Numbered from the stretch's first letter, positions 6,736 to 27,239 are shown. The stretch is 34,663 nucleotides of DNA from Candidatus Heimdallarchaeota archaeon (GCA_046761065.1 JBHIFL010000048.1:1-34663), one strand, 5' to 3'. The notes: generated by a model from the sequence alone, not told the origin. Numbers and translations are program-made.

Positions 6736-7929
6736 CTAAGGCATAACCTTGATGTTCCTTCGTTGGTGTTCTAGATGTTGTTGAATGATATTTAGATAGC
6801 TACATCCAACTTTTTTCCATGTCATAGATCGAGTGAATCTATAAGCTTTCTTCCGCATTTCATTACGAACGGAATCAGAAGAGAATAAATCAATGATTGC
6901 TTGTGCGATTGCATTAGAATCTTTAAATGGAATCAGAATCCCTCTCCCATCAGCAAGGAATTCTTCCGCATGATAAAAAGGTGTTGAAATAACAGCATTG
7001 CCCGTTCCTAGGGCGTAACTCAATGTCCCAGAACAGATTTGATCCTTAATTATATAGGGGATAATATAAACATCTGCTGCTATTAAGAACTTCAATAATA
7101 GCTCTAGCTTTACATATTGATTATAAAATCGTACATGATTCTCTAATTTTAACTTTTTTATTTTCTTTTGGAGCTCATTTCGATATTGTTCTCCAAACAA
7201 CTTATGTATCCTGTTTGGATGGGTTTTTCCGAGAATGATATAAAGAGTGTCTTTATATTCTTTGATAATACGAGGCATAGCATCTATTACATATTCGAAA
7301 CCTTTCCATTTACTAAGTAACCCAAATGACAAAATTATTTTACGATTATCTAACTTTAACTGCTCTTTATAGAGACTATTCTCCTCAATAAACGGAACAT
7401 CATGGAAACCATGAGGAATAATAGAAATTTTTTCTTCACAAACCCCGTAAACTTCTAAAAGAAATTCCTTACCTTTATTGGTCATAACTATTAATTTATC
7501 TGACAATTTTCCTATTTCCACAAGAATCTGTTTGGCCTCTTTCTTTGGTCTTAATCGGATTGTATGGAAAGTAGTAATAATTGGGATTTGAAGATTTTTT
7601 AGTAACTCAACAATGTAGGATCCATATTTTCCTCCAAAAATGTTATATTCATGTTGTAGAATAACTATATCACAGTAAGTATTAAGAAAATCTGCGGCAC
7701 TATAATAATCAGAGAGTTCTTTGTCTCTAATTTTAAAATGAATGTGCTCAGAATAGGCGTAATCTTTACGTCCATCATCCATTGCTATTACAATAAGATT
7801 TTCAAATGGAGATAATTCTTTATTTAAAGCAGTACAAAGATCTGCAGCAAAAGTGGCAAGCCCACATAGTCTTGGTGGGTAAGTACTAATAATACCAATT
7901 GTTTTTCGATAGGGCGTAATTTGTGGCAT
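6736..7929 (-). CDS. GT4 family glycosyltransferase
   Basis: STYPPRLCGLATF, LQHEYNIFGG, TTFHT, IPHG, FGLLSKWKG, GKTHP, QICSGTLSYA and STPFYHAEE motifs. This type is commonly paired with the long GH130. Confidence 0.9.
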   Translation of the reverse strand: MPQITPYRKTIGIISTYPPRLCGLATFAADLCTALNKELSPFENLIVIAMDDGRKDYAYSEHIHFKIRDKELSDYYSAADFLNTYCDIVILQHEYNIFGGKYGSYIVELLKNLQIPIITTFHTIRLRPKKEAKQILVEIGKLSDKLIVMTNKGKEFLLEVYGVCEEKISIIPHGFHDVPFIEENSLYKEQLKLDNRKIILSFGLLSKWKGFEYVIDAMPRIIKEYKDTLYIILGKTHPNRIHKLFGEQYRNELQKKIKKLKLENHVRFYNQYVKLELLLKFLIAADVYIIPYIIKDQICSGTLSYALGTGNAVISTPFYHAEEFLADGRGILIPFKDSNAIAQAIIDLFSSDSVRNEMRKKAYRFTRSMTWKKVGCSYLNIIQQHLEHQRRNIKVMP

Positions 7930-8298
7930 TTATTATCCCTACAACCTACTTCATTCTCCATATTTTGGAAAGACAGTTTTTCAAAGAGAAAATTAAATAA
8001 AGGAATGATATAAAACTTTGTATTGCAAGTCATTCAGCATATTATCTAAACTAATTGGAGAATCATAATTTTCGAAAAAAATGTTCTGTTAAGTTTTTGT
8101 TGAAATGCCAAAGTGCCCTCCTTTTCTGTTAATCATCTCTCTCGTGTTCCTCTGTTTTTAGAATTTTGATAAAACGCGCAACGATTTGAACCAAAAGAGT
8201 TTTTGGAGAGACGAAATTTTCTTTTTGTGGAGTTCCTCCCCTAAAGATGATCACAATATGAGCACAAACAACCATCGCCTAAGTATTAGCTCTCCACT

Positions 8299-8760
8299 AT
8301 GAAACTACTACGATATAATCACAATCCTATTTTTAGACCTAATAAGAGAAACTGGTGGGAATCAAAAGCCGATTTCAACCCGGGTGCAGTTTATAAAGCT
8401 GACAGGGTTCATCTACTTCATCGTGCAATTGGAAAATATGAAAATTATGTATCTAGACTTGGACATTATATGAGTACAGATGGGTTCAATTTCCAACGTG
8501 CAACAGACGACCCTGTTTTCGTTCCTTAAGAAGAATATGAAAAGTGGGGGCGTGAAGACCCGAGAATTACTGAACTTCAAGGACAATTCTACATTACCTA
8601 TGTTGCTCTCTTAAAGCCTGTTAGGCGCGGAGGAAGCCCACCCAGCACAGCTGTAGCTTCCACAAAGGATTTTCACAGTTTCTGTAGATATGATATCCTC
8701 ACTCCACCTAGAACTAATGATAAAGATTCGGTATTTTTTCCAGAAAAAATTGAAGGCAAT
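8299..8760 (+). pseudogene. GH130 pseudogene with an in-frame stop, truncated at the C-terminus
   Basis: RYNHNPI..WES..FNPG..SRLG..STDGFNF, TAA at 8527-8529, then the same frame continues EEYEKWGREDPRITE..YITYVA..NDKDSVFFPEKIEG. Similarity stops near 8760. Confidence 0.85.
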
Positions 8761-8764
8761 CTAA

Positions 8765-9175
8765 GATCTCAGCCCTACAGAGGTAATACAACCCGCTACC
8801 ATAGGAAAATGGAGTGTCAAAGATGTGCTCAGCCACATTGCAGGGTGGGATATCTGGATGAGTACTACTATACAGACAATACTTGGAGGTAACCAACTAA
8901 ATCTCTCTGCGCCACTTGATGTTGATGTTACCAATGCAAAATTTGTAGAAGACCGAGTTCGTTGGTCAATAGATCAGATTCTTACAGAGATGGCTGATAC
9001 ACTCCAAAAGGTGCTTTATATTGTCGGGGGACTATCTGAAGAGCAAATTTTCAAACCTCAACTTTTCGAAGGTCATGACTGCTCCATATACCACTTGCTC
9101 AAGGTAGGATATGAGCATGACCGCCGCCATACAGACAAGATACTCCTCAGGCGAAAATCGCAGAAGATAGGATAA
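8765..9175 (+). pseudogene. DinB/YfiT-family protein lacking its N-terminal helix
   Basis: After a stop at 8762-8764 the frame reads DLSPTEVIQPATIGKWSVKDVLSHIAGWD...YEHDRRH (WSVKDVLxH plus HxxxH). There is no start codon upstream of the WSVKD motif. Confidence 0.7.
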
Positions 9176-9321
9176 ATTCAGGTAGATCAATTTCAAACAT
9201 GAGTATAAATTTCAGGTGATAATTTAGTTTAAATGTTGGATTTGTACGCTTTTTTATATGAAGAGAATTAAGGCATTTTACTTATTGTTTTTCTAATAAA
9301 TCGAATGTCAGGGTAGTTTTT

Positions 9322-10680
9322 ATGGTCAAAATATGTATAATAGGCGCTGGTAGCGTGGTGTGGTCTTCAATTTTAATTAAGGATCTTTGTCTGACAAAAA
9401 GTCTTTGGGGCAGCACAATTTCGTTAATGGATGTTGATAGGGAACGTCTTGAAGTGATATTCGGATTAGCGAAAAGATACGCAGCTGAGGTTAAAGCAGA
9501 TCTAAGACTTGAGAAAACAATAGATCGAAAAAAGGCGTTAGAAGACTCTGATTTTGTATTCAACACTGCGTTAGCTGGTGGACATAGTAATTTTGAGCTC
9601 CAGCGCAAAGTTGCAGAAAAACATGGCTATTATAGAGGTATTGATAGTGTAGACCACAATATGGTCTCAGATTACCCGACTATAGGTGGTTATAATCAAC
9701 TAAAGCTTTTCATGGACATAGCGAGAGATATGGAAGATATCTGCCCAGAAGCATGGTTGATTCTAACAGCAAATCCAGTTTTTGAGGGCAGCAACCTTCT
9801 GACAAGACAGACCAAATTAAAGGTGATAGGTCTTTGTCATGGCCATTTTGAAGTTAACAATGTGGCAGAGACAATTGGACTTGGTCTGAAAGACTTGAAA
9901 ACTGAATCTATCGGGTTCAATCACTGTATCTGGATGACATCCTTTCTCCATAAAGGTGAGGATGCCTATCCTATATTAGAAGAATGGATTAAAACGAAAG
10001 CAGAGTTATTCTGGCGGAACTGGAATCCTAAATATTTCGATGTCCAAATGTCCCCAGCAGCTGTTGATTTGTACAAGAGGTTCGAGTTGTTTCCAATCGG
10101 AGACACACCTAGAAGTGGGGGTTGGAGATATCACATGGATCTTGAAACGAAGAAAAGATGGTATGGTCCATTAGGTGGGTTTGATTCCGAGATTGGATGG
10201 GCTCATTATCAGGAGGATCTTAGGAAACAAATGAGTAAAATGCGTAAGGCTTACAAAAATCAATCAATTCGGATAAAAAGAGTATTACCACCATTCAAGA
10301 GTGGAGAGCAGCATATACCTCTCGTTGATGCGATTGTAAGCAATAAAAAAAGAACGTTTCAAGTGAACATACCGAATAAAGGTGTGATCCATGGAATACC
10401 AGATGACGTGGTTGTAGAAGTTCCAGCAATCCTGAGTGGAAATGGTGTCCAACGAACACATGTCGAAGGATTACCAAAACATTTAATGTTGCATATAATG
10501 ATTCCTCGGCTATTAAAGATGGAGTGGGCTGTGGAGGCTTTCTTAGAAGGAGGTAAAGACCTGTTGCTAGAATGGCTTTTGAATGACCCAAGAACAGAAT
10601 CCCTTGAACAAGCCGAATCTGTGATCAAAGATATCCTTGCATTGCCTTTTAACAAGGAGATGGCAGCACATTACAAATGA
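9322..10680 (+). CDS. GH4 NAD+/Mn2+-dependent alpha-glycosidase (Thermotoga AglA-like alpha-glucosidase/glucuronidase group)
   Basis: KICIIGAGSVVW Rossmann motif, GYYRGIDS..NMVSDY, ANPVFEG, GLCHG, GFNHCIW, PIGDTPR, SGEQHIP and IPDDVVVEVP. Confidence 0.9.
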   Translation: MVKICIIGAGSVVWSSILIKDLCLTKSLWGSTISLMDVDRERLEVIFGLAKRYAAEVKADLRLEKTIDRKKALEDSDFVFNTALAGGHSNFELQRKVAEKHGYYRGIDSVDHNMVSDYPTIGGYNQLKLFMDIARDMEDICPEAWLILTANPVFEGSNLLTRQTKLKVIGLCHGHFEVNNVAETIGLGLKDLKTESIGFNHCIWMTSFLHKGEDAYPILEEWIKTKAELFWRNWNPKYFDVQMSPAAVDLYKRFELFPIGDTPRSGGWRYHMDLETKKRWYGPLGGFDSEIGWAHYQEDLRKQMSKMRKAYKNQSIRIKRVLPPFKSGEQHIPLVDAIVSNKKRTFQVNIPNKGVIHGIPDDVVVEVPAILSGNGVQRTHVEGLPKHLMLHIMIPRLLKMEWAVEAFLEGGKDLLLEWLLNDPRTESLEQAESVIKDILALPFNKEMAAHYK

Positions 10681-10741
10681 GTGCGCTGGAACTTTGATAA
10701 TCCATATCATCAACATATCTGCCTTAATCCATCCGTCCATC

Positions 10742-11245
10742 TTATTTATTAGGAGGAATCGTTGGATCCGGATCTTTATAACAATAATAAGTTCCCATAT
10801 CTACTGGAACTCCATTTTGTTTTAAGTATGTAAATAATTGACCTACATGTAACCATTCATGTCCGATTTCCCCAAATACTTCCTTATAGATTGATGTTTG
10901 CTCTTCTTGATACCAAAACTGTATCTGTTTTTCATGAGCATCCTCTAGATGCTCTTCTAAAAATACAACCAGCTTTTTCAGCCCTTCTTCATATAATTTC
11001 ACCAATCCATGAGCATTCGGTGGTTTATTTCCCTCTTCAAAAGCCACATATGCTTTTTCATCCGGAAAAGGGTCTACCATCCCCTTATAGAGGCTCATTG
11101 GGGCGCACGCCAGATGAGTTGCGAGTTCCGCTGTCGTCCTCATATTTGGTGCAGGTTTCCAGTCCCATAATTCTGAAGGTACCATTTTAAGAAGATAGAG
11201 AATACCTATACGTTGGCCTTTTAAGATATGAATTAATTCTTCCAT
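10742..11245 (-). CDS. DinB family protein
   Basis: WKPAPNMRTTAELATHLA and HEWLHVGQLFTYLKQNG (His triad pattern). GAGGT RBS. Confidence 0.85.
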   Translation of the reverse strand: MEELIHILKGQRIGILYLLKMVPSELWDWKPAPNMRTTAELATHLACAPMSLYKGMVDPFPDEKAYVAFEEGNKPPNAHGLVKLYEEGLKKLVVFLEEHLEDAHEKQIQFWYQEEQTSIYKEVFGEIGHEWLHVGQLFTYLKQNGVPVDMGTYYCYKDPDPTIPPNK

Positions 11246-11448
11246 GATCTAACCTCGTCATTTGATGGTTTAAGGAATTTAAAAATCTTCTTCCGCCCAT
11301 CTCTTAAACAGTGCTCCATAGCTGTGCGGCGTTCGACTCGTTTATATACCCACTAGCTTGACCAAAAGGCATTATTTTGTAGTCATAATTAGCGAAATCG
11401 GAAAGTAAACATCTTGTATTTCATTAAGTTTCGAGTGCTATATTTGAG

Positions 11449-12477
11449 TTAGGACTCATTCAACCATCGCTCAAGATCCACCTGTTTTTTCTGTTCGTAT
11501 GATTTTTTCATACGATCAATCACAGATTTTACTCGATCACTTGAAAAGCCCTGTTCCTGACATAGAAAAGCTATGAGTTCTTCTTCTTGTAACGGTCTAA
11601 TATCTATATTATAGTCAGAAGTTACCTCTGGATATAAAAATAGATCCCGAATCTGTTCATAATGTTCTGGAATCTTTGAACGAATCTTCTCTGGCATTGC
11701 TTCCAGACACCCGTAGTCGCGAACCAGTCGCAGTCCGGTCTTTGGGCCCACTCCCGGCACTTTGTAATTAAAGTCCGTGCCAAGAAGGATTCCTAAGTCA
11801 ATCAACTGATTGTGTGTGATTCCATAATAGGAAAGGAGCTTTTGTAGTTCGATGAGTTCAGGTTGGCTCGGTAGGTTGATATTTCGGTATTTACCACTGA
11901 TCGAGAGATATCTTGCTTGTCTTGGAACTCCATAGAGGAGCGAATCATAGTCTTGGCTGTTTGCTGCCCAGAACCGCTTGTTCGTTCTTACCATGAAGGC
12001 GGTTTGTGCTTCTGCGTCTCGAGGCGCATCAATAACTGGGATTCCTAATAGTGAGAGGAGGTACTTCGCATCAGCAATTAAGTCACTTGTCAATCGACTT
12101 GTTACTATAGCTTTTGAGAAGGCTGTTTGGAGATCACCCGCTTCTAATGCCGCCTTCCACGCCTTTTCAGCTTTCGCCTTCGCTTTACTTCGTCGCTTGA
12201 GTTCAGCTCGCTTCAGTTCAATCGGTTCTCCATCAAAAACAAAAACAAAGCGTATCCCAAAATCGGTGATCAGCCGAGTTGTACGATAGAATAACCCGAT
12301 AAGATGAGAGGTGATTACATTATTCCAACTGAGCAAGGTCCCATCGCGCTCTCTAATAATCGATAGGAATTGATAGAGGATATTGTTGGCATCTACCGCC
12401 AGTATTCGACCCTGAAGTGCGTCTAAGGAGATGATCTGCCGGACTGGTCTGACCAGCTCACCTAGGTTTGTCCCCAT
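11449..12477 (-). CDS. fen1: Flap endonuclease-1
   Basis: AVDANNILYQFLSIIR..G, TSHLIGLFYRT, FVFDG, APRDAEAQ, SQDYDSLLYG, GTDFN and GVGPKT motifs, plus a C-terminal PIP box QVDLERWL. Confidence 0.97.
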   Translation of the reverse strand: MGTNLGELVRPVRQIISLDALQGRILAVDANNILYQFLSIIRERDGTLLSWNNVITSHLIGLFYRTTRLITDFGIRFVFVFDGEPIELKRAELKRRSKAKAKAEKAWKAALEAGDLQTAFSKAIVTSRLTSDLIADAKYLLSLLGIPVIDAPRDAEAQTAFMVRTNKRFWAANSQDYDSLLYGVPRQARYLSISGKYRNINLPSQPELIELQKLLSYYGITHNQLIDLGILLGTDFNYKVPGVGPKTGLRLVRDYGCLEAMPEKIRSKIPEHYEQIRDLFLYPEVTSDYNIDIRPLQEEELIAFLCQEQGFSSDRVKSVIDRMKKSYEQKKQVDLERWLNES

Positions 12478-12600
12478 AACTTTATACCTCGATATAATTC
12501 TAGGCAGTCTTCATGCGAAGGCAAATCAACTTTTCGATATATTGTAATAAATTAATCTTCCACCGATTTGGGTTGCTCTGTCTGAGGGATATGAGCTGTA

Positions 12601-15225: not shown

Positions 15226-16020
15226 ATGAAGTTTGTTGTGTTATTGGAGATCTCTGAAAAGGGAGAAAAGTTCCCACGGAAATTCATCCGCACATTATTC
15301 TCATCAAGTGAGTTAGCAAATCAGAGAGCATACATTGTCTTTGACGATTTGAACGAAAAAATCTGGCTTTGGCTTGGAAGTGGGCTCTCAAGGGTACATC
15401 GTGCAGTGGCGCAGCGTTCCGCGGGATTTGCGAGGGCTCACGGGCATGAAGTTGACCAATATATTGTAGGGCGCGGCTATGATGTGGTTGAAATTCAAGA
15501 AGGCGAAGAACCCCCCCTCGAGTTTACGACGCTCTTGCATCAAAAATTGGAGGTCCACGGAGACTATAGTGTGATTACTGGAGTCCCCGAGATTACGAGA
15601 GGACCTGTAAAACCACTTCATCTAGCTGAAGAGGAAGTAGGAACAGCAAAAGTAAAACCTGAAGCAGAAGTAATCCTTGAAGAAAGACGTGTTGACGAGG
15701 TAGTTGAGGAGGTAATTGAGCCAAAAGATCCTACGAAGACCTATGTGGTACTACCGAAACTTTTAGAACTTCCTCCAGATGAAAAACCCATTTATGTGGA
15801 TGGGTTGGTACAGAGAGCGTTGTTGGGGCTTGAGAAAGAGGGAATGGTAAGTCGTGGAGCCGAGGAGAATTCCTTCATCCTATACTCAAAAGATGGCGAT
15901 CTCTTAGGAACGGTCCTTCTAGATCCAGTATCACGAGATGAAATAGCCTATAAGGCTAATTGGATTCGACAAGAAGATGAAAATTTGTTTGCGAAGTATT
16001 TATCAATGTCTAGTTCATAA
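15226..16020 (+). CDS. Single gelsolin-like domain protein with an acidic linker and an unknown C-terminal domain
   Basis: SSELANQRAYIVFDDLNEKIWLWLGSG..R..A...A and VVEIQEGEEPPLEF match the gelsolin repeat pattern (L....hhIhD....IahWhG..S......A...A ... h.EG.EP..F). GAGGTG RBS. Confidence 0.75.
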   Translation: MKFVVLLEISEKGEKFPRKFIRTLFSSSELANQRAYIVFDDLNEKIWLWLGSGLSRVHRAVAQRSAGFARAHGHEVDQYIVGRGYDVVEIQEGEEPPLEFTTLLHQKLEVHGDYSVITGVPEITRGPVKPLHLAEEEVGTAKVKPEAEVILEERRVDEVVEEVIEPKDPTKTYVVLPKLLELPPDEKPIYVDGLVQRALLGLEKEGMVSRGAEENSFILYSKDGDLLGTVLLDPVSRDEIAYKANWIRQEDENLFAKYLSMSSS

Positions 16021-16121: not shown

Positions 16122-16748
16122 ATGACGAACCCAACGAAACACATAAAGTTATTAAATATTCTCATTAAGCTTTTTGGGACTCCAGAGAAACTAGAGCGTT
16201 CTGATCCCTTTCAAGTCCTTGTTTCGACAATATTGAGCCAAAGAACACGAGATGAAATATCTGAAAAAGTGAGTAACAGGCTTTTCAAGCGAATTAATTC
16301 CATCGAGGACCTCGCAATAATCCCACTCGAAGACCTCACTCAGATCCTGCGTGGGGTGAATTACAGATTTCAAAAAGCTAAAAGGCTCAAAAAAATTGCT
16401 CAAATTCTTTTAAAGAAGGGTAGCGTTCCCACTACCCGAGAAGAACTATTGCAACTTCCTGGGGTTGGCGAAAAAACGGCGAGTTCCGTTCTTATGTTTG
16501 GACTGGGGGAAACTGATGAAATCCTCCTTGATACTCATGTGTTCCGGGTTTGTACTCGTTTGGGATTCTGTTCACAAAACCAGTCGAAATCAGAGGTGCG
16601 TAAAGTGGTTCGACGGGAATATCCTGGTCAAGACTTGAGATTGGTTGACCACGTTTTCTTGAGCCATGCCAAAACATTCTGTAAAGCGCAAAATCCGCGC
16701 TGTCAGGATTGTCCCATTCACGAGTATTGTGGGTACTATCGTAGGTAG
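16122..16748 (+). CDS. nth: Endonuclease III (HhH-GPD, 4Fe-4S)
   Basis: DPFQVLVSTILSQRTRD, LPGVGEKTA (HhH Lys), DTHVFRV and C-x6-C-x2-C-x5-C. Likely start 16122; the ORF is open from 16044. Confidence 0.93.
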   Translation: MTNPTKHIKLLNILIKLFGTPEKLERSDPFQVLVSTILSQRTRDEISEKVSNRLFKRINSIEDLAIIPLEDLTQILRGVNYRFQKAKRLKKIAQILLKKGSVPTTREELLQLPGVGEKTASSVLMFGLGETDEILLDTHVFRVCTRLGFCSQNQSKSEVRKVVRREYPGQDLRLVDHVFLSHAKTFCKAQNPRCQDCPIHEYCGYYRR

Positions 16749-17127
16749 TCATCATGATCCAAGAGACTAGTTAAGCTGAAGAAGAGCAGAAAATATCCAC
16801 CGAATTGAGCTTGATTTTGAGCAGTTTTTAGAAAAGGGTTAGGTTCGTAGCCTGATCCCACAAAAGGTTATAAAATTTGGTATAGGCTTTCATGGTTACT
16901 CGTTAGAGTTAAGCAATATCTTCTTTTATGACAAAAAACGTGGAATGTCCTGAGATTATATGAACTCTGCTCAGTCAAATATTGGCTCTAGAGAAGGATT
17001 ATCTGTTTTAACATAAAATTTTTGAGAAGTAAAAAGGATTGTTTTGAAAAGAGTACAAGACAAAATGAATAAAAAGATTTAAGAGATCTCAAGTCTACTC
17101 CTTGATAGAATTTAATGCACATAAGGG

Positions 17128-17394
17128 ATGTATTCTATGGGAGACCCGCTTAAGACGCTGGATACCAGTCATATCGAAATCCTTAGAGATTTTCAGAAGG
17201 ATTTAGAAAGACGCGGTAGAAAAATGACAGAGATAGAGCTACTAACAGCTCTTATAGAATTTGTTGCAAAACGAAAACAGTTGTTCATCAACTCTCTGTT
17301 TCCCAGGGAAGAAAAAAGTCCGCTTGAAAGGTGGCTTGAAAAGATAGCAGCCACGGATTCCCCTGAGAAAAAGGAACGAAGCCCTGCGGGATAG
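17128..17394 (+). CDS. Small hypothetical protein, possibly an RHH/VapB-like DNA-binding protein
   Basis: 88 aa with strand-helix-helix character (KTLDT..EILRDFQKDL..RGRKMTEIELLTALIEFV). No PIN toxin gene follows. Confidence 0.45.
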   Translation: MYSMGDPLKTLDTSHIEILRDFQKDLERRGRKMTEIELLTALIEFVAKRKQLFINSLFPREEKSPLERWLEKIAATDSPEKKERSPAG

Positions 17395-17482
17395 CTGTCC
17401 ACTTGCGATGTATTGATAGCCTTTATAACCATACATCTCGGATATGTGATGTTGTTATTAAGATTTGATGGACATATGCGGC

Positions 17483-19066
17483 TTATGCATCTATTCCTTT
17501 GAGTTTCCTGAAGAGTGCAGGTAAACGGTCACGGTCTGGCGGTTCCTGTGCTCTCCCTGTAGCCCAGCGTTGTTTTAGGTTTCCATAAAACTTTGCAAAA
17601 CTTCGTATGTCCTCTCCAATATAGGTACGATATGCTTTTTTCTGAAATAGAAAGTCCGATAATAATCCCTCATGTGGTTCGGCAGCATTGATCGCGCATG
17701 TAAGCTCCCCCATATACACTTTGCCTACCCTTGGGAGGGTTAACATCTCCCGAGTCAAATCTTGGTCGTCAGTGATCAATGAAAGCACGAGAGAGTTTCT
17801 TATCAGTCTTCTCATTTGTTGCGCATCTTGGACTCCGATCACCGTAATGAATGGAAAGGGAAATTCCGCCCCAAGAAGCCTGTTCTCTGGTTCCTTTACC
17901 CTAACAACCGTGGGTAATAGGTATGTCAAACCGTCTTTTTTCACGAATCTCGGAGTTCCTCGAAGCTCAAAAGTGATATCCTCCCCGCTTCCATCGAGAG
18001 ATGCTGAAATAAAATGGTTAATACCTTGGGCGACCTTGGAGTCGAGAAAAGCAGCAATCTTCGCATTTTTGTTTAAAGGCGGAAGAGCTTGTTCATGGAA
18101 CACGTTCGCAGCTACCGCTCGAGCGAGTTCATCAGCGATGGTCGTACTATTCTCTCCATAGACGATGACCGCAGAAGCATTTATGCAGCTCCGACCTCCA
18201 TCGAACATCATGGAATCAGTGATCAAATCAATCAATTTGGTGAGTCCAAAAGAGTTAATGTAACTCGCATCAACTATGATCTTGCTCTCCCCCGGTCCGT
18301 AGGGCTTTATCCGGGCATGTTCCCTGAATGGTTTCACCGTCTGTGCCGACCCAAAGATGAGGCTCAGATCGCACTCATTTAGTAGGTTGGGCGTCAAGGC
18401 ATGAGTTAGAGGGAGATAATGACACGAATGCTCTGGAAGGCTGGCTTCATATAGGGATGTAATGATTCGGTGAGTTGTGAAAGGTTCACCGATTGATGGC
18501 TTGGTTAAGACCGGGTACTTCATGCCCAAAGCCAACATCCAGAGACTGTTTACTGCAGGATGATTGGAAGGAACAACAACTCCAAGATTCCGCCCTCGGG
18601 GTACCCATCCAAACTTTAGATCGCCCCTTTTACACGAAAAGGTGTCATAGACTGTCAAATCACCGGTAGGGCTCATTGCTTTAAGGACATAATCGATATG
18701 GTTCATAACCCAGGCAAGCATTTCTAGAGCATTCTGAGTATAGGTGATCGGCATTCCGGTAGCAAGAGTCACGTATTTTGCACACTCTTCAACACTCAAA
18801 ACCCGATCTTCCGTTAGCGGAACATTCTTCACGAAAATCTTAGAAGCTTCTTTAAAGATTGCAACGATACGTGAAATAGGCATCGAGTGCAAATTTTGAT
18901 AACCTATCGTTCTTGTTTGCAGAATAGACTTGCTCAAGATAATATGGGGGGAGATGGACAGTTTAAAGGGCTTTTCCTCTCCAAAGAGAGGGACTGTCTG
19001 CGTGGTCAGTGTCCTGTAGGAGGGACCTCCACGGATGAGAGAGATTACTGTAGGTTGAGCCTTCAT
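17483..19066 (-). CDS. Aldehyde-dehydrogenase-fold reductase, GriD/EhpG (LuxC-like) type
   Basis: GVVVPSNHPAVNSLW, KPSIGEPFT, FGS, GPGESK, catalytic Cys in GGRSCINAS, EFPFPF and PHEGLLSDFLF. Carries an extra C-terminal tail of about 50 aa. Confidence 0.8.
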   Translation of the reverse strand: MKAQPTVISLIRGGPSYRTLTTQTVPLFGEEKPFKLSISPHIILSKSILQTRTIGYQNLHSMPISRIVAIFKEASKIFVKNVPLTEDRVLSVEECAKYVTLATGMPITYTQNALEMLAWVMNHIDYVLKAMSPTGDLTVYDTFSCKRGDLKFGWVPRGRNLGVVVPSNHPAVNSLWMLALGMKYPVLTKPSIGEPFTTHRIITSLYEASLPEHSCHYLPLTHALTPNLLNECDLSLIFGSAQTVKPFREHARIKPYGPGESKIIVDASYINSFGLTKLIDLITDSMMFDGGRSCINASAVIVYGENSTTIADELARAVAANVFHEQALPPLNKNAKIAAFLDSKVAQGINHFISASLDGSGEDITFELRGTPRFVKKDGLTYLLPTVVRVKEPENRLLGAEFPFPFITVIGVQDAQQMRRLIRNSLVLSLITDDQDLTREMLTLPRVGKVYMGELTCAINAAEPHEGLLSDFLFQKKAYRTYIGEDIRSFAKFYGNLKQRWATGRAQEPPDRDRLPALFRKLKGIDA

Positions 19067-19259
19067 TGAGGTCTTTCTCCTTTCTATGGGTATGTTGGAC
19101 GTATCATCAGTTTATCCCCCTTTCATTAAGCTGCCCTGTACTGGGGCAGGGGATGGGGAAGTGTTCGGTTAAAATTGGCATTGTCAAAAACTACTGCCAG
19201 TATCCAAGATCTGGTCACAACGAAATGACAATATTCTCTTAAGAGCGCCAATGTACTCA

Positions 19260-20333
19260 TCAATACACTCCCTCAACTATGTCGGCAGCTTTCGTCCGAA
19301 TTATTTGTGGATTTCGCACTCCATCCCATTCAAACGGTTCAATCGGTCCAATTTTCTTCCCCTCATCTCGTTCGAGGAGGTTTACGATCAAGAAGTCCTC
19401 CGTAAACCTGTGTCCCATGACCTGCCCAATTTCCCCTACATCCACCTCCTCCCAGGGGTCATCAAAATTTACAATTCTGTAGTAGAAGTAGGGGAACCCA
19501 GGATAGTAGTCCAGATTGTAGTCTCCCTTACGAAAGGGCCTTTGGATTGCTCCTCCGAAGAGAGTATTCCCATAGATCCCCGCAATTGGAAGGCCTGTAT
19601 AGATCTCCTCTAGGAAGACCTTGTACGTGTCAACTGACATGGAAGTGCCCCCATGAACGATTCCTTTGAAGGATTGGAGCAATTCCGCGTTTGTCCGTTG
19701 AGGGAGCATTTCTAAAATTTTTGAAGTTGTTAAGAGTATTCCTACATTCTGGCTCCGGAGGATAGCCATCACTTGGTCTTGGATGTGTTGCATATACTCC
19801 TCGAGGGCTTTGAAGTTTTGACTCATCGTCAGCTTCCTGACGAACCGTGGATCTAGATCCAGGGTAAAAAAAAGATCACCTGTTGAGTGGATCATTTCCC
19901 TCATAATTGCTCCGAATATATGCGGACCTGTTGGTCCAGCAAACAGCCAGTTGTAGCCTCGTGGGATTCCATTCAATTCCAGACCCCATAGCACGTACTC
20001 TTGAGCTGCTTGCCAGTATGAACGCCCATAAATTGTTCTCTTTGGAGCGCCAGTTGCCCCGCCCGTTTCGGCTACCATCATCACTTCCGTCTTCGCAAAA
20101 CGTTTCGGTATTAGTTCTTCGATAGGGAGGTTACGTAGATCCTCTTCATTCATCAATCCCAGGACATGAAGATCCTCAACAGTCTCAATTTCTTTCTTTA
20201 CATCTATCCCTAGTTTTTTTTCTTTTTTCAACCAATACGGAGTCCCTTCTCGAGGATCAAAATGAATCTCAAGGATCTTCCGTATCCACTCGTTCAGGTC
20301 AATTTCACCTTGGAGGTATTCAACATGGACCAT
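19260..20333 (-). CDS. Truncated ANL-type adenylating protein, GriC/EhpF type
   Basis: HFDPREGTPYW, ETGGATGAPKR (ANL P-loop variant), GPTGPH, DLDPRFVRK, HGGT, YGNT, ERD and C-terminal EGVY*. Lacks the small ANL C-domain. The RBS GAGGT favours ATG 20333 over GTG 20348. Confidence 0.8.
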   Translation of the reverse strand: MVHVEYLQGEIDLNEWIRKILEIHFDPREGTPYWLKKEKKLGIDVKKEIETVEDLHVLGLMNEEDLRNLPIEELIPKRFAKTEVMMVAETGGATGAPKRTIYGRSYWQAAQEYVLWGLELNGIPRGYNWLFAGPTGPHIFGAIMREMIHSTGDLFFTLDLDPRFVRKLTMSQNFKALEEYMQHIQDQVMAILRSQNVGILLTTSKILEMLPQRTNAELLQSFKGIVHGGTSMSVDTYKVFLEEIYTGLPIAGIYGNTLFGGAIQRPFRKGDYNLDYYPGFPYFYYRIVNFDDPWEEVDVGEIGQVMGHRFTEDFLIVNLLERDEGKKIGPIEPFEWDGVRNPQIIRTKAADIVEGVY

Positions 20334-20351
20334 TGGTTGGAACCTCACTTT

Positions 20352-20837
20352 TCAAGCGGTCTTCTTTTTGGAAGATTTAACAAACTTGGAAAAAGCCTCC
20401 GCGAGAGATTCTCTTCGCTCAGGTCGTTTCTCAAGCTTCGGCTCAGAAAGTCTTAAAAGCCGTATTAACCGGTTCTCATATCCCTCAAATATGCTATCGT
20501 CCCCTATTCGGCTTTCAAGAAATGCTTGCCAGACGGGTTCTTCATAATAGTTAAAGAAATCATCAATAATTTGTTCTAGGTAGGTTTTCAAAGTTTCCGG
20601 CGCCTCCTGCTTGTCTCCAGCTAGAACAAAAAGTAAGGGAGGATGCATCGTGTAAACAAATCGATATTCTTCCGTTTCTGTGAGTTCTAAAGACTTCTGC
20701 CCGATTTCTTTACTAAAAGTGAAGATAGCAGACATGAAGCTTGAGAGCATTATGGGATCTAATTTCACTTCTTCCCCAAATGACTCATGGAAAAGGCATA
20801 TTCCGCCCCGATCAATAATCCAGAGGCCTTGTATCAT
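20352..20837 (-). CDS. Longin-like domain protein
   Basis: MIQGLWIIDRGGICLFHESF...DPIMLSSFMSAIFTFSKEI...RFVY...LLFVLAGD...LKTYLEQIIDDFFNYY follows the beta-beta-alpha-beta-beta-beta-alpha longin order typical of Asgard longins. Confidence 0.75.
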   Translation of the reverse strand: MIQGLWIIDRGGICLFHESFGEEVKLDPIMLSSFMSAIFTFSKEIGQKSLELTETEEYRFVYTMHPPLLFVLAGDKQEAPETLKTYLEQIIDDFFNYYEEPVWQAFLESRIGDDSIFEGYENRLIRLLRLSEPKLEKRPERRESLAEAFSKFVKSSKKKTA

Positions 20838-21208
20838 CTACAGCCCTCATTTTCTCAATCAGCAATATCCGAAAAGATTTGGGCAATAAATCAATGCTTC
20901 CATTAATGTATCTCTGTTCCAATCATACTCTCTGCCAGCACTATTTAATAAAGACATCGAAAATCGTTGATTTATTCAGATTTGTAATAAATAAGTGAAA
21001 GAATTCAGCAAACCTCCGGTTTTGCTAGCTAGGAGTTCATGAAATCTCATTAGAGCCTCAGAACAGTACCAAACCAGACCATTTTTAAGAAAAGATTGTG
21101 TAATGTCGGTAGGAAATTGGAAAATCTGTAGATAGAGCAATAGTTATCTTGTAATCCAAAACACATATATCAGGATGTAGTTCTTTCGATATCAAAACGA
21201 TTAGTCTA

Positions 21209-21217
21209 TTTATATAA
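21209..21217 (+). promoter_or_regulatory. TATA-box candidate for the kaiC-like operon
   Basis: TTTATATAA about 23 nt before the first in-frame ATG, in the divergent intergenic region. Confidence 0.45.
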
Positions 21218-21257
21218 GCTCCTTATACGCAAAAGTTAGATGTGGAGAATCCTGGTC

Positions 21258-22157
21258 ATGATTCAAGAACGGATCCATTCCGGAATAGCTGGATTGGACA
21301 AATTACTTGAGGGAGGTCTACTTAAGAATACTACAAATACCGTCTTTGGTGGCACTGGAACAGGAAAGACAACCTTTGCGATTCAATTTGCCCTGGCGGG
21401 CTTGTATAGTGGTGATCATGCCCTGTACATAACCTTCGAACAAACACCTGAAAAGATCCTCCGCCAAGCAGAGTCGCTTGGCCTATATGAATTACGCACT
21501 TACTATGAAGACGAGAAAATAATATTCCATCATGCAACAGGTGAAGAAGTGGTCGAATTCTTGACCACCTCGCTTCCAGGAACCGTTGACGAGCTGAAAG
21601 ATGTCATTTCTATTCACAGTCGTGTGGTCTTGGATCCACTCACGCCATTGATCTGGGAGTTGGGTGAGAAAAAGACCCAACGAACTGTTCTTACTAATGC
21701 CTTTGCTACGCTTCAAGAACTTGGGACCATCCTAACAGTTGTAGAAGAGACCAAAGGATTCGAAGCTGGCGCTGCCATGGTGGAAACGGAAACTCCTCTC
21801 TTATTATCGGACTCTATATTTCATTTACAATTTCTTGGCCTTGGGGGATTATTCAACCGTACATTGCGGATCTTGAAGTGCCGGGGCACACAGCATGGGG
21901 AGGATGTTTACCCTTTTACCTTTACGAAAGGAAATGGAATAACACTATTCCTTCCTGAAGTGGAAATGCTACCTATATCGGAGAAGGCACCTCCTCAGTT
22001 CTCAAAGATTTTCGATGAATATCTTCATATGGTCCGGAAAAAACCTGCGAGTAGTCTTAAGGACATGATATTGAAACGTATCGAAATCATGAAAGGGCAA
22101 TGGACCTACAAAGAATCCCCGGAACTGATTCTTGAAGAGTTAATCAAACAACTTTGA
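21258..22157 (+). CDS. Single-domain KaiC/RAD55-like RecA-superfamily ATPase with a helical C-terminal extension
   Basis: SGIAGLDKLLEGG, Walker A GGTGTGKT, YITFEQ, Walker B VVLDP, RTLRILKCRGTQH arginine finger. Start at 21240 or 21258. Confidence 0.9.
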   Translation: MIQERIHSGIAGLDKLLEGGLLKNTTNTVFGGTGTGKTTFAIQFALAGLYSGDHALYITFEQTPEKILRQAESLGLYELRTYYEDEKIIFHHATGEEVVEFLTTSLPGTVDELKDVISIHSRVVLDPLTPLIWELGEKKTQRTVLTNAFATLQELGTILTVVEETKGFEAGAAMVETETPLLLSDSIFHLQFLGLGGLFNRTLRILKCRGTQHGEDVYPFTFTKGNGITLFLPEVEMLPISEKAPPQFSKIFDEYLHMVRKKPASSLKDMILKRIEIMKGQWTYKESPELILEELIKQL

Positions 22158-22194
22158 ATGTTGAAAACCTGAATCTTCTTAGGGGTTAGAACCG

Positions 22195-22560
22195 TTGTCT
22201 AGGACCACGATTATAAGAAGTATGGACGATTTATACAGCCTCGAGGATGTCATTACTGTTCTGTTGGTTAGAACAGACGGGGTGGTCCTTCAATCAAACA
22301 TCCCCAGTGTGTACCCAGATCCCGAACTTATCAAATCACTGGAATGGGTGGTGTCGGCGGTTCCCTCTGTTGTCATGGAAATGCAAAAGAAAAATCTGCG
22401 GAAAGTTATCTATGACCTCGAAAGTTCCATGATTGTTTTCTATAGCTGCAGTCCACAGATTTTATTGATAGCGCTTCTTGAGCCCACGGCCAACCTTGGC
22501 CTTTTGCTAATCGAACTGAGTCGAACCGCAAGGGTAATTGGTGAGGCGCTTGAATACTAA
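22195..22560 (+). CDS. Roadblock/LC7 domain protein
   Basis: VITVLLVRTDGVVLQS and LLIALLEPTANLGLLLIELSRTA. 121 aa. Confidence 0.85.
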   Translation: MSRTTIIRSMDDLYSLEDVITVLLVRTDGVVLQSNIPSVYPDPELIKSLEWVVSAVPSVVMEMQKKNLRKVIYDLESSMIVFYSCSPQILLIALLEPTANLGLLLIELSRTARVIGEALEY

Positions 22561-22594
22561 TATGCGATCACCTAGGTAGTGAGACCAGGACAGG

Positions 22595-23920
22595 ATGAAT
22601 TTGGTAGAAGCCTCAGTAGCGGTACATAGTTCCGCCGATGCTGAAATTGCCGCTCGTGAAGCGGCAAAGAACGCCATGGGTCGGATTCGCGGGGATGCGG
22701 ATCTGGCACTAGTCCTCATCACCGATCGGTATCCTTCAAAATCCTGTTATAGCCAAGCCCTCCAAGCCATTCAGCAGCAAATTGGGGAGCAAACCCCAAT
22801 AGTTGGATGCATTACTCCGGTGGTTTTTGCTTCACGAGAGATTCCCACCATCCAAGGGGTTGCACTTATGCTCCTTCGGAGCACAGACATTAAGTTTGTG
22901 CCACTTGCATTCCAAAATGCCAGAGTGAAAGCGAGAGACATTGCAAAGCAAATGGTTAAGAGATACTTACCCTTTATTGAGTCATCAGCTGCTTATTCTG
23001 TTCTGATGTGCGCATCGGGTCCGGTATTACCCAAGGACATTTATCGCTCCCTAGAGGTCACTAACAGTTGGTTTGCTCAGAGGTTGACGCCTATCTTTTC
23101 ACGAATTTTTGGATATATCTCCCGACGCTTAATGAAGAAGGGAATGGGCTCACCTACCAGTTACATTGATACCTTAGTCCAAGTATTGGCAAACAAAGGA
23201 ATAACCAACGTAGTCGGGGGAAATTCCATCAACCATAAAGCCCTTTTTGCCTATGAATTCTTCAACACGGATGTCTTGTCCAATTCTGTTGTCTCATGCC
23301 TTTTAACTTCAGATAAACTAAAATTTGGCATCGGGTGGTCCTTTGGTGCGACTCCTACGGGAAAAAAGATCACAATAGACAAAACTCTTGGAAGCTTGAT
23401 TCTGAGAGCAAACAAGAAGAGCGGTCAAGAAGCAATCCTCGAACAAACGGGGATCACTAAAACCTATATCGAAGAGGAGCTTGCCAGTGAAAGTTATGCT
23501 CTTCTGTATCATCTTCACGGCGTTAGGGATTCGACCTCTGGCAATTATTTCCCCTACGTGTCAACCATACCACCGAATCTTTCTTCATTTATGTCGTTTA
23601 TACCGGAGAGATCATTGAAACCAGGCAAAGAGTTAGAGTTCTTGATTCAGTCCGGAGAAGATATTCTAACTTCCATTAGGACGTGCTTGATAGAAGCAAC
23701 GGCCAACATCCACCGTCCAGAATTTGCAATCATCTTTGAATGTTCAAATCGGGCGTTTGCTCTTGGGGATAAGATTCTTCGGGAAGACAAAATTATCAGA
23801 GAAATCTTAGGCGCAGATGTTCCATACATTGGATTTGGTGGCGGGGGAGAATTTTCCTATAAGCCTGAGGGGTATCACTATGTTTGCTCCACTATTCACG
23901 CCCTTGTTGCAGGAGAATAG
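22595..23920 (+). CDS. FIST N+C domain protein (putative small-ligand sensor)
   Basis: AAREAA..A, PIVGC, GVALMLL, VVGG, FGIGWSFG..PTG, IFECSNR, VPYIGFGGGGEF and TIHALV are FIST_N/FIST_C hallmarks. Confidence 0.85.
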   Translation: MNLVEASVAVHSSADAEIAAREAAKNAMGRIRGDADLALVLITDRYPSKSCYSQALQAIQQQIGEQTPIVGCITPVVFASREIPTIQGVALMLLRSTDIKFVPLAFQNARVKARDIAKQMVKRYLPFIESSAAYSVLMCASGPVLPKDIYRSLEVTNSWFAQRLTPIFSRIFGYISRRLMKKGMGSPTSYIDTLVQVLANKGITNVVGGNSINHKALFAYEFFNTDVLSNSVVSCLLTSDKLKFGIGWSFGATPTGKKITIDKTLGSLILRANKKSGQEAILEQTGITKTYIEEELASESYALLYHLHGVRDSTSGNYFPYVSTIPPNLSSFMSFIPERSLKPGKELEFLIQSGEDILTSIRTCLIEATANIHRPEFAIIFECSNRAFALGDKILREDKIIREILGADVPYIGFGGGGEFSYKPEGYHYVCSTIHALVAGE

Positions 23921-24057
23921 CTTACTGGTCATTTTTAGGTGTAAAGACCGTTATATAGAAAAAGTGCAATGAGTTACATAAATGCCTCTCTATTGAAGTG
24001 GAGGCTCTAGAAGGAGGGAAATTACTTTATAAGTTGGACGAGAGAGGCGAATGCGAA

Positions 24058-25212
24058 TTGAAAAAGCGTTTTGGGATAAGTATCAATATTATCCTGTTAG
24101 GGGTTGTGAGTTTCTTAACGGATATCTCCAGTGAGATAATTCTTCCAATCCTTCCGTTTTTTATTGTAGCCTTGGGAGGGGCGGGTCTAGCAGTTGGTCT
24201 AGTTGGAGGGCTGGAAGGAAGCATCTCCAGTATCCTAAAAGTCTTCTCGGGGTATTTTTCTGACAAGCTCGGAAAAAGAAAGGCCCTTGTAGCAGCTGGT
24301 TATTTCACGAGCTCAGTCTCAAAACTGGTTCTCCCATTTTCAACAACCGTTTCACACGTATTTTTCCTACGATCTAGCGATAGGGTTGGGAAAGGAGTAA
24401 GAACTGCTCCTAGAGATGCCCTAATTGCTGACTATTCAGCTCAGGAACGCAGAGGTCGCGCCTTTGGGTTCCATAGGGCCATGGATAGCGCAGGGGCTAT
24501 CATAGGGTCTGTGCTTGCTTTACTTTTGTTCTGGTTTTTAGAACTTGATTTTAACAAAATTATCCTCATAGGCGCCGTACTAGCCTTTTCAGCCCTCATA
24601 CCCTTGGTCCTTGTCAGGGAACCACGAAAAACGCAGAAACTCGTGAGTTTGGAGATTGGCCTTAAAAGACTCCCTAGGTCCCTCCGTTTGTTTATAATTG
24701 TTGCTTCGGTCTTTGCTCTAGGTAATTTCACCTACATGTTCTTTATCTTACGCGCCCAATCCTTATTCGAAGGACGGGGGGGTATATACATTTCAATTGC
24801 ATTGTATGTATGGTTCAATATTATCTACACGGCGTTTTCAGTTCCTGCGGGAGTATTATCGGACAAATTCGGCAGAAGAGGAGTTCTCGCTTTCGGCTAT
24901 TTCCTCTTTGGTGTGACATGCCTGGGGTTTATCGTTTCAAACTCGATGACATGGCTGACTCTCTTTTTCGCTGTATATGGGGTCACTAATGCAATAGTAG
25001 AGGGTACGCAACGGGCGTTTGCCGCCGATCTAGCGCCTGTTGATTTGCGAGGCACGGGATTGGGGACCTTCCATACCGCTGTGGGGTTGGCAGCTTTACC
25101 GGGGGGGATAATCGCGGGCCTGCTCTGGAGTTCGGTCAGCCCTGAGATGATGTTTCTTTACGGAGCGATTTTAGGGTTTTTTGCTGCAGGATTCTTGGTG
25201 TCCGTGAAATAA
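24058..25212 (+). CDS. MFS transporter
   Basis: About 12 hydrophobic segments, VSFLTDISSE, GYFSDKLGKRK, DRVGKGVRTAPRDALIAD, FGFHRAMD and LSDKFGRR. Likely TTG start at 24058; the ORF is open from 23998. Confidence 0.93.
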   Translation: MKKRFGISINIILLGVVSFLTDISSEIILPILPFFIVALGGAGLAVGLVGGLEGSISSILKVFSGYFSDKLGKRKALVAAGYFTSSVSKLVLPFSTTVSHVFFLRSSDRVGKGVRTAPRDALIADYSAQERRGRAFGFHRAMDSAGAIIGSVLALLLFWFLELDFNKIILIGAVLAFSALIPLVLVREPRKTQKLVSLEIGLKRLPRSLRLFIIVASVFALGNFTYMFFILRAQSLFEGRGGIYISIALYVWFNIIYTAFSVPAGVLSDKFGRRGVLAFGYFLFGVTCLGFIVSNSMTWLTLFFAVYGVTNAIVEGTQRAFAADLAPVDLRGTGLGTFHTAVGLAALPGGIIAGLLWSSVSPEMMFLYGAILGFFAAGFLVSVK

Positions 25213-25799
25213 CCATTATTATTCGCCGAAAGTTGTTTCTGAAAATTGCTATAGCGCACAATTCAATAGGTGTGGGCAAGAGCCCAGGATTAACGAATAT
25301 GGTAAGACCTTCTACATCTTCTAACTAGATGTGAATCTTGGAAATGGAACTCTATGTCCAAATAGGATATGTACCATATACGTTGGAAATCAGGATCTTC
25401 AACGAAAAACTCGAAAAGACATCGGGATTAACCCAATATCGGGTAATAGACTATGATGAAAAAAACGAAGAAAAAACCGAAAAAATCGAAAAAAGAGAGA
25501 ATGAAAGAGAAAAAACAGAAAAAACACAAAAAAAGAACAGAACGATTCTAGTTTGCCTAAAAGGACCTTAAAGTGAAGAGTTGCTATCGATTTAACTCGA
25601 CAGAACATATTATGTGACAAGTTGATTGAATAGAGCAATCACCACTCCCTCATTATTATGCAGATGGTGGTTTAAAGAGTTTGCAGAAAAGAAGGATGCA
25701 ATCATAACAAAGCCCTTTATTAGATCTATAAAGCAGAAGTCGTTAGGAATAGTGCCAATATTAGGTTTATGAAATTATACAATTGATCTCTAAGCAGGA

Positions 25800-27239
25800 A
25801 TGGTGAAATTCATGGTCTCAGAACACTTTTTGGACACGCCTTTGCTCTATGATGGGAAAATGATCAACGAGTTCATTCCTCAAAAATACAATCGGCTCGT
25901 CAAAGTTTTAGAAGAGACGAATTGGAAACCGGAATTCGAAAATTTGGAAGAGAAGCTAGATGATGTCTTAGACAACCCCGTAGGATACACTGAATCCCTA
26001 GAACAATTGGTGGCAAGACATTATGGAAAACACAACAAAATCTTGATACTATTAGACGATAATACCCGACCAAATGAACACACGAAACTTCTTCTCCCCC
26101 TATTATTGCCCCGTTTGCTTGATTATGGGATTACAAAAGAGGATATTCATATCCTGTTTGCATGTGGAACCCATCGGGCTCCTACCCCCGCGGAACAAAA
26201 AGGGATATTGGGTTCTGAAATCTGGACGGAATATCACGACCGACTACTCGTTCATGATTGTGACAAAGGTTGTATCGATTTAGGTATTCAAAGTAGCATG
26301 GGGACCCCCATCATCATCAACGAGCATGTCATAACTGCTGACTTAGTCATCCCGATAACAGATTCTGAGCTCCACTACTTTGCAGGGGTTGCTGGCACAA
26401 TAAAAGAACTGATTCCTGGGGTAGCAGCAAGGCGCACGGTCAACAAAAATCATGTAAGATTATTTGATCCAAAATTAGGCTTCAAAACGGCATGTCGGCT
26501 AGGTAATGTTGATGGGAACCCAGTGATCACCGACATCAAAGAAATGGTAAATAAAATCACCAAGAAAGTCCCCATATTTGGCATCGATGCTATATTTGGG
26601 CTCCATTCGAGGGAAATCGTATACCTGAACGCAGGAGATCTTGTCAAACTTCATGAAGCCGCCGCTCGCCGTATAGTTGCTTTGCGAACCGTAGAAATTA
26701 ATTCTCCTGCAGATATCGTTATAGTGTCGGCAAAACAATTAGGTATCAATTTATACCAGACTGGGAAGGCAATCCATACAGCTTGGAATGCTGTTAAACG
26801 AGGAGGACAAGGAAAAATCATCGTCCTTGCCGCATGTCGGGATGGGGTGGGAAGTGCTTCCTACCTCCAAAGCATGGACCAATGCAAGAACAAATCCCTC
26901 GATCAAGCCTTGGAATTTGTTCTTGCGCATTATTGCACCGAGGAGACCTTCCGGATTGGAAATCAAAAACCAGTGGATCTAATCAGAATCCTGCAGTCTA
27001 TTGGGGAAACAAACATTCATATGATAACTGAAATGGATCCTGAGCTCCTGAAACGCACCTTCCGAATCAATCCAATTCGAAAAGCACCTGACGAGAGTGT
27101 TAGCACGGTTCTCACGCAAGTTCTTGCTGATTTAGTGGAATGGGGGAAAAGAGAGAAGGAGGGGGCTCCTCCCTCGATTTACGTGATCCCTGACCCGGGG
27201 GTGCTTGTGGTACAAAAACATCAGTCCATTTTCCTTTGA
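25800..27239 (+). CDS. larA: LarA-family nickel-pincer-nucleotide racemase/epimerase
   Basis: DNTRP, GTHR, ELHYFAGVAGTIK (His, Lys), KNH and LYQTGKA correspond to the LarA active-site set. The substrate is not assignable. Confidence 0.85.
   Translation: MVKFMVSEHFLDTPLLYDGKMINEFIPQKYNRLVKVLEETNWKPEFENLEEKLDDVLDNPVGYTESLEQLVARHYGKHNKILILLDDNTRPNEHTKLLLPLLLPRLLDYGITKEDIHILFACGTHRAPTPAEQKGILGSEIWTEYHDRLLVHDCDKGCIDLGIQSSMGTPIIINEHVITADLVIPITDSELHYFAGVAGTIKELIPGVAARRTVNKNHVRLFDPKLGFKTACRLGNVDGNPVITDIKEMVNKITKKVPIFGIDAIFGLHSREIVYLNAGDLVKLHEAAARRIVALRTVEINSPADIVIVSAKQLGINLYQTGKAIHTAWNAVKRGGQGKIIVLAACRDGVGSASYLQSMDQCKNKSLDQALEFVLAHYCTEETFRIGNQKPVDLIRILQSIGETNIHMITEMDPELLKRTFRINPIRKAPDESVSTVLTQVLADLVEWGKREKEGAPPSIYVIPDPGVLVVQKHQSIFL

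Follow-up and report, generated by a model that had tools for sequence, protein, structure and literature searches.

Here we describe a divergent locus in a 34,663-nucleotide stretch of DNA from Candidatus Heimdallarchaeota archaeon (GCA_046761065.1 JBHIFL010000048.1:1-34663), hereafter the window, which belongs to a 4.4 Mb metagenome-assembled genome (MAG) that is 91% complete (contig C48). One unit of the locus encodes a KaiC-like ATPase, a roadblock protein and a FIST protein. The other unit, on the opposite strand, encodes a longin-fold protein, an EhpF/GriC/ThnN-type adenylating enzyme and a subunit with an aldehyde dehydrogenase (ALDH) fold. The locus is a real but undescribed functional module; in the literature that we searched, we found no description of a KaiC-roadblock-FIST set combined with a carboxylate reductase. 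Its gene content, the family assignments, the conserved linkage of its two units and a predicted roadblock-FIST interface, all obtained by computation, carry this finding. Our preferred reading, which we judge to have an even chance of being right, is that a KaiC-roadblock-FIST switch forms one functional module with a longin adaptor and the two subunits of a carboxylate reductase, the acid/aldehyde couple being the likely signal or controlled product.

Recurrence of the divergent block

A first reading of the window, made from its sequence alone (the sequence-only reading), had proposed a six-gene divergent arrangement, and all six genes are indeed present, in two units separated by 402 bp. 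The gaps within the units had been given as under 40 nt. This holds for KaiC to roadblock (37 nt), roadblock to FIST (34 nt) and longin to the adenylating gene (3-18 nt), but not for the gap between the adenylating and ALDH genes (193 nt) or that between FIST and the following major facilitator superfamily (MFS) gene (77 nt). Comparison with relatives places the likely starts of the KaiC and adenylating genes at 21258 and 20333, respectively. Alignment of the divergent region with three relatives revealed two conserved AT-rich blocks (~20941-20965 and ~21155-21172), which are probably TATA/BRE-type promoter elements.

The two halves had been expected to be linked in related genomes, and they are. 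Relatives are named 'Candidatus Heimdallarchaeota archaeon' in NCBI, and the divergent block is found in contigs L059/L060, L063 and L064, where the adenylating enzyme is 77%, 83% and 80% identical to that of the window, respectively. The outer flanks of the block differ between these contigs; they include hydrogenase genes, a gene of the IS605 type and further unrelated genes. Contig L081 (GCA_016840025.1), from a more distant relative in which FIST is 44% identical, keeps the ALDH and adenylating genes on one strand, then KaiC, roadblock and FIST on the other. The link extends to another phylum: an Aenigmatarchaeota MAG carries KaiC, FIST, an EhpF-like gene (E 5e-43) and an ALDH gene (39% identity) in that order, all co-directional and with gaps of 1-77 nt. 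That five related contigs and a second phylum share the arrangement places it beyond chance.

The longin and MFS genes are variable accessories of this block. The sequence-only reading had cast the longin protein as a partner adaptor; its gene proved mobile and dispensable, being absent from L059 and, in L081, represented by a homologue (E 9e-19) positioned behind FIST rather than ahead of the adenylating gene. This switch between the units argues that one accessory serves both and that the units work together. The MFS gene does follow FIST in the window, as had been noted, but it is not a conserved member, since it is absent from L059, L064 and L081 and kept in L063 only.

A FIST orthologue is present in 77 of 400 genomes of the phylum. 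In type A operons (families f4, f23 and f21), KaiC, roadblock and FIST occur in this order with a Ras-like GTPase gene, and in f21 an MFS gene follows. Orthology of this gene to the window MFS was rejected (BLASTP E 6e-4, over a partial region only). Type B operons (f9, f24, f26 and f28) contain genes for a roadblock protein, a second roadblock-domain protein, often a gelsolin-like protein, FIST, LuxE and LuxC. At least 16 of the ~22 LuxC-bearing genomes have FIST within ~5 kb on the same contig, and most of the others end at contig breaks there. Because the type B LuxE-LuxC genes are non-orthologous to the window pair, acid-to-aldehyde chemistry has been attached to FIST and roadblock via two enzyme families. 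A Logan metagenome contig (L084 1-4353) encodes KaiC, an AF0774-type roadblock and FIST, then Fer4 and CCG-domain proteins, which give the triad yet another redox partner. The KaiC-roadblock-FIST cassette is thus portable and takes alternative partners; in type A operons it occurs widely with no reductase adjoining it. The FIST tree placed the window clade decisively with neither the GTPase-type nor the LuxE/LuxC-type operons, so that it names no ancestral partner.

Type A operons also have a divergent gene that partly matches the Pfam E3 UFM1-ligase model (L007 7777-8586, minus strand) and a conserved Cys-rich gene of 106-128 aa after the Ras-like GTPase gene (L007 11978-12364, plus strand), both in the same place in L008 and L054-L057.

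Encoded proteins and the predicted roadblock-FIST interface

The assignment of the enzyme pair to the GriC/GriD (EhpF/EhpG) type, made in the sequence-only reading, was upheld. The adenylating protein aligns with EhpF (PDB 3l2k and 3hgu; phmmer E 1e-40) over residues 17-362 of 362 against 19-366 of 366 and, like EhpF, is without the ANL C-terminal domain. Its match to Pfam AMP-binding is sub-threshold (15.8 bits). The phosphate-binding motif (T/S)GG(x)TGxPK is present as ETGGATGAPK (residues 94-103), with G97, G100 and K103 invariant among 16 homologues, and JGI names homologues of the protein ThnN. The partner subunit matches Pfam Aldedh (52 bits; cut-off 23). Its Cys294, in the motif GGRSCINAS, aligns with the catalytic Cys of KauB and shows at least 90% conservation among 13 homologues. 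In a single weak pairwise alignment, the general-base Glu of oxidising ALDHs ('EAGGKS' in KauB) is unmatched by a Glu. The nearest kin of this subunit outside the clade are the Aenigmatarchaeota protein (39% identity) and bacterial 'acyl-CoA reductase-like ALDH' proteins. The pairing of the adenylating and ALDH genes is kept in L059, L063, L064, L081, L082 and L083. These family relationships suggest that the window pair would reduce a carboxylic acid to an aldehyde.

An identity of the pair as LuxE/LuxC was rejected. The Pfam models PF04443 and PF05893 gave no match to the window proteins at E 0.01 or better, BLASTP comparison gave E 0.15 to Asgard LuxE and E 0.015 to LuxC, and a precomputed LuxC match, graded 'weak', occurs in one relative only. 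In L059, L063 and L064 the spacer between the two enzyme genes is of similar length and moderately conserved, whereas L081 has just 33 nt there; an internal promoter may lie within this spacer. An Rfam scan of 16500-25500 gave no match, and a search of genome contigs for related loci with a five-sequence alignment matched 81 stretches, with 0 confirmed. Elsewhere, in Asgard family f26, a long co-directional cluster (L077, G150 contig C117, 6497-19975) contains two genes of the EhpF-like and two of the ALDH-like kind. The cluster has a biosynthetic look, and reductase pairs of this sort could have come from such a source.

The KaiC-like ATPase (PF06745) has intact motifs, comprising Walker A (GTGKT), the Walker B Asp and the catalytic Glu, and residues G40, G42, K43, T45, E67 and D132 are invariant in 10 orthologues. 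Circadian KaiC proteins consist of two tandem KaiC domains in ~500 aa and have KaiA/KaiB as partners. This identity was ruled out for the window protein, which has one domain in 305 aa and which scores far below the cut-offs of the circadian-KaiC NCBIfam models. There is no Ras-like GTPase gene in the window locus. On another contig of the same genome (C51, ~7457-12492) a KaiC paralogue (8186-9040) adjoins two Ras-like GTPase genes (7457-7819 and 12010-12492).

The 121-aa protein alone scores below the cut-off of Pfam Roadblock (13.5 bits). A profile of 14 orthologues matches the PDB roadblock 7f8m over its full length (E 2.8e-9) and also 9jue (E 7e-7), and its relatives carry the precomputed Pfam family PF27410 (AF0774). 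Judged by these profiles, the protein is a roadblock. The 161-aa protein also falls short of its Pfam model (Fuz_longin_1, 22.5 bits, E 1.4e-4; cut-off 26.1). In its AlphaFold2 (AF2) model, with a predicted local distance difference test score (pLDDT) of 73.6, the elements follow the order bb-a-bbb-a (E2-8, E14-19, H28-44, E52-75, H80-97). A Foldseek search with this model placed zeta-COP, Bet5, sigma-adaptins, Mon1 and HPS4 at the top (E ~1e-6 to 1e-5), with roadblock proteins close behind. As modelled, the protein has a longin fold.

The FIST protein matches both FIST_N (PF08495; 59.8 bits, cut-off 23.2) and FIST_C (PF10442; 39.4 bits, cut-off 28.5), and residues C383, R386, G391, D392 and E419 are invariant. 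Its AF2 model (pLDDT 93.7) has FBXO22 structures as its best PDB fold matches, followed by Toblerone-fold cyclic amide hydrolases and chorismatase, which are built of repeated YjgF-like units (E 1e-6 to 1e-4; template modelling (TM) scores 0.28-0.36). A FIST profile searched against PDB sequences did not reach FBXO22, and similarity to solved FIST proteins was undetectable in this search.

The sequence-only reading had looked to contacts between pairs of these proteins, and one such contact is predicted. A three-chain model of KaiC, FIST and roadblock, in which roadblock was the partner scored, reached 0.72, against 0.00 for the best of three controls. When FIST was replaced the score fell to 0.00; the scored interface therefore depends on FIST. 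Among solved complexes, 58 of 80 attained this mark, as did 2 of 110 mismatched pairs, counts that hold only roughly for the present model because our own alignments and three chains were used. Contact agreement between runs was at least 84% and the partner pLDDT at least 81. On the roadblock side the contacts involve the C-terminal helix, residues 98-114, with the invariant N100, L103, E107 and R110; on the FIST side they involve residues 384-395, with the invariant R386, G391 and D392. KaiC residues 199-208 and 223-225 also contact roadblock in the model. We know of no solved FIST-roadblock complex, and the model's score is therefore unlikely to reflect a memorised structure; to our knowledge, FIST is not a known partner of any roadblock. 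The model thus predicts that roadblock binds FIST through the invariant FIST_C motif.

Table 1 Features of the locus, with window coordinates and the basis of each assignment
Feature	Coordinates	Strand	Size	Basis or remark
Small conserved open reading frame, membership uncertain	17128..17394	+	88 aa	Convergent with ALDH gene; no Pfam match
ALDH-fold reductase subunit (EhpG/GriD/ThnO-like)	17483..19066	-	527 aa	Pfam Aldedh 52 bits
Spacer between enzyme genes	19067..19259	-	193 nt	
EhpF/GriC/ThnN-type adenylating enzyme	19260..20348	-	362 aa	PDB EhpF E 1e-40
Longin-fold protein, variable accessory	20352..20837	-	161 aa	Fuz_longin_1 sub-threshold and AF2 fold
Divergent intergenic region	20838..21239	.	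402 bp	Two conserved AT-rich blocks
Single-domain KaiC-like ATPase	21240..22157	+	305 aa	Pfam KaiC 126 bits
Roadblock/LC7 protein, AF0774-type	22195..22560	+	121 aa	Profile against PDB 7f8m
Stand-alone FIST_N + FIST_C protein	22595..23920	+	441 aa	Pfam, AF2 model
MFS transporter, variable accessory	23998..25212	+	404 aa	Pfam MFS_1 134 bits

Several genes flank the locus. The small open reading frame beside the ALDH gene is found at the same position in L059, L063 and L064; it may encode a small regulator or belong to the module without having been recognised as a member. At a distance of 1.5 kb past the ALDH gene lies a gelsolin-like gene (264 aa; 15226-16020, plus strand) that L063 shares; it scores below the Pfam gelsolin cut-off (16.9 bits) and shows weak similarity (BLASTP E 6e-4) to its gelsolin-like counterpart in the type B operons of other Asgard families. 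After the MFS gene lies a gene of the lactate racemase family (LarA-like; 25800-27239, plus strand) that relatives do not retain; in L063 its place is taken by a gene of the IS605 OrfB/TnpB type.

Proposed mechanism and its alternatives

In the mechanism that we propose, FIST would dock via C383-x2-R386-x4-G391-D392 onto the C-terminal helix of the AF0774-type roadblock, which in turn would contact the active single-domain KaiC-like ATPase. The EhpF-like subunit would adenylate an acid with ATP, and the ALDH-fold subunit would reduce the activated acyl group to the aldehyde on Cys294 with NAD(P)H. The longin-fold adaptor would accompany both cassette and reductase. The acid/aldehyde couple would be either what FIST reads or what the cassette gates, and the ATPase state of KaiC would be the output of the switch. 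The make-and-sense mechanism as such, the reductase activity, the identity of the ligand and the direction of information flow are what we infer here.

Several findings weigh against this mechanism. The invariant FIST residues fall on the predicted protein interface rather than in a demonstrated ligand pocket, and the earlier proposal that FIST senses the substrate or product of the enzymes is unsupported as stated. In the Aenigmatarchaeota operon no roadblock was detected, nor is one fused to its 510-aa FIST. The type A families f4, f23 and f21 carry the cassette without an adjoining reductase, and the EhpF-like gene of f4 lies elsewhere in the genome, unlinked to FIST; the reductase is therefore one of several partners and not an obligate one. 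The two enzyme genes of the window are 193 nt apart, so that co-transcription is possibly absent. Finally, the close relatives are not independent samples.

The position of the invariant residues would also fit an alternative in which the cassette regulates or assembles the enzyme pair on another cue, by binding, transcription or localisation, without sensing its metabolite, the reductase being an interchangeable output. The varied partners of the triad favor this as well, as they include a Ras-like GTPase with a Cys-rich protein, two unrelated kinds of MFS protein, Fer4 with CCG-domain proteins and two unrelated reductase pairs. However, FIST domains elsewhere, such as that of NosP, are small-ligand sensors, and acid-to-aldehyde chemistry has been recruited twice via non-orthologous enzymes, which argues that the chemistry itself matters. 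We regard this alternative as rather unlikely. Lower still in probability, and in our view doubtful, is that FIST and the reductase pair together form a small biosynthetic route, in which FIST would be an enzyme or carrier and KaiC and roadblock would be accessory. The YjgF-like-unit enzymes that come after FBXO22 among its fold matches, the tight FIST-LuxE-LuxC and FIST-EhpF-ALDH gene orders and the presence of EhpF-like relatives in biosynthetic clusters are consistent with such a role, but the TM-scores of those matches are low, FIST also occurs in enzyme-free type A operons, and its conserved polar residues are predicted to touch roadblock. That two unrelated operons share a divergent promoter region by chance, their linkage inherited in a narrow clade, is scarcely credible: although the four nearest contigs are closely related (77-86% identity) and the gene sets are unlinked in f4, the block persists while flanks differ among relatives and at 44% FIST identity with the longin gene moved across units, and the co-directional version in another phylum, together with the analogous LuxE-LuxC link over four families, largely refutes it.

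Comparison with known systems

Few 'eukaryotic signature' proteins are as expanded in Asgard archaea as the roadblock and longin proteins, and almost none of these has an assigned partner. In the module, a roadblock gains FIST as its predicted partner, KaiC as a linked NTPase and the conversion of acid to aldehyde as a linked chemistry. The GTPase genes of the cultured Asgard strain MK-D1 generally do not share operons with genes for roadblock, longin or TRAPPC3 proteins (PMC10933270). The proteins of the module are small and soluble, which makes them expressible and assayable, and the locus offers a natural context for identifying the FIST ligand.

Archaeal KaiC-like ATPases are reported to have been proposed as signalling hubs by Makarova, Galperin and Koonin in 2017 (mBio 8:e01959-17, as cited in PMC5847659), itself a prediction, and the module provides a test of this hypothesis. 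It shares with such hubs a single-domain KaiC with intact motifs whose operon also encodes putative sensors and adaptors, but differs in its partners, an AF0774-type roadblock, FIST, a longin protein and a carboxylate reductase, which are undescribed in this role in the literature searched. FIST sensors of the bacterial NosP type are stand-alone proteins that act on a partner kinase. The window FIST is likewise a stand-alone FIST_N + FIST_C protein of ~400-440 aa beside a signalling protein that it presumably controls; its partner, however, is the roadblock/KaiC pair and not a histidine kinase, and the locus contains no kinase gene. In MglA/MglB and Ragulator-Rag, roadblock/longin proteins serve as NTPase-regulating platforms. 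Here, too, roadblock and longin-fold proteins are encoded with an NTPase, and a Ras-like GTPase is found in the sister operons, but the only NTPase of the window locus is the RecA-fold KaiC ATPase, with no GTPase gene.

The best structural match of the FIST model, human FBXO22, is an F-box substrate receptor in which aldehydes covalently engage Cys326 of the FIST-type C-terminal domain (PMC11208438). The window FIST_C has the invariant Cys383, and it is a speculative analogy that this residue of the archaeal protein echoes Cys326; the two cases differ in that FBXO22 is an F-box protein and its aldehyde ligands are synthetic. By extension, and as a long shot, one could envisage aldehyde-based archaeal signalling, in which a reductase-made aldehyde would be read by FIST, possibly as a reversible adduct of Cys383, which adjoins the roadblock-binding motif, and would toggle a roadblock/longin platform coupled to KaiC or, in the sister operons, to a Ras-like GTPase. 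If true, this would reveal a natural ligand class for FIST and a prokaryotic forerunner of the eukaryotic roadblock/longin metabolite-sensing platforms.

The enzyme half of the module has parallels of its own. LuxC-LuxE of luminous bacteria follows the same logic, an ANL-type acyl activator and an ALDH-fold reductase yielding an aldehyde, and while a proper LuxE-LuxC pair stands beside FIST and roadblocks in Loki-type relatives, the window pair is not LuxE/LuxC. The closest counterparts are EhpF/EhpG of the Pantoea agglomerans phenazine/AGA cluster, where the ehpF-ehpG gene pairing is annotated (PMC11278526), GriC/GriD of grixazone synthesis in Streptomyces griseus and ThnN/ThnO of thienamycin. 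These systems and the window pair have in common a truncated ANL subunit with an adjacent ALDH-fold partner, but the window pair is archaeal, lies outside any recognisable secondary-metabolite cluster and is linked with a longin protein and the KaiC-roadblock-FIST cassette.

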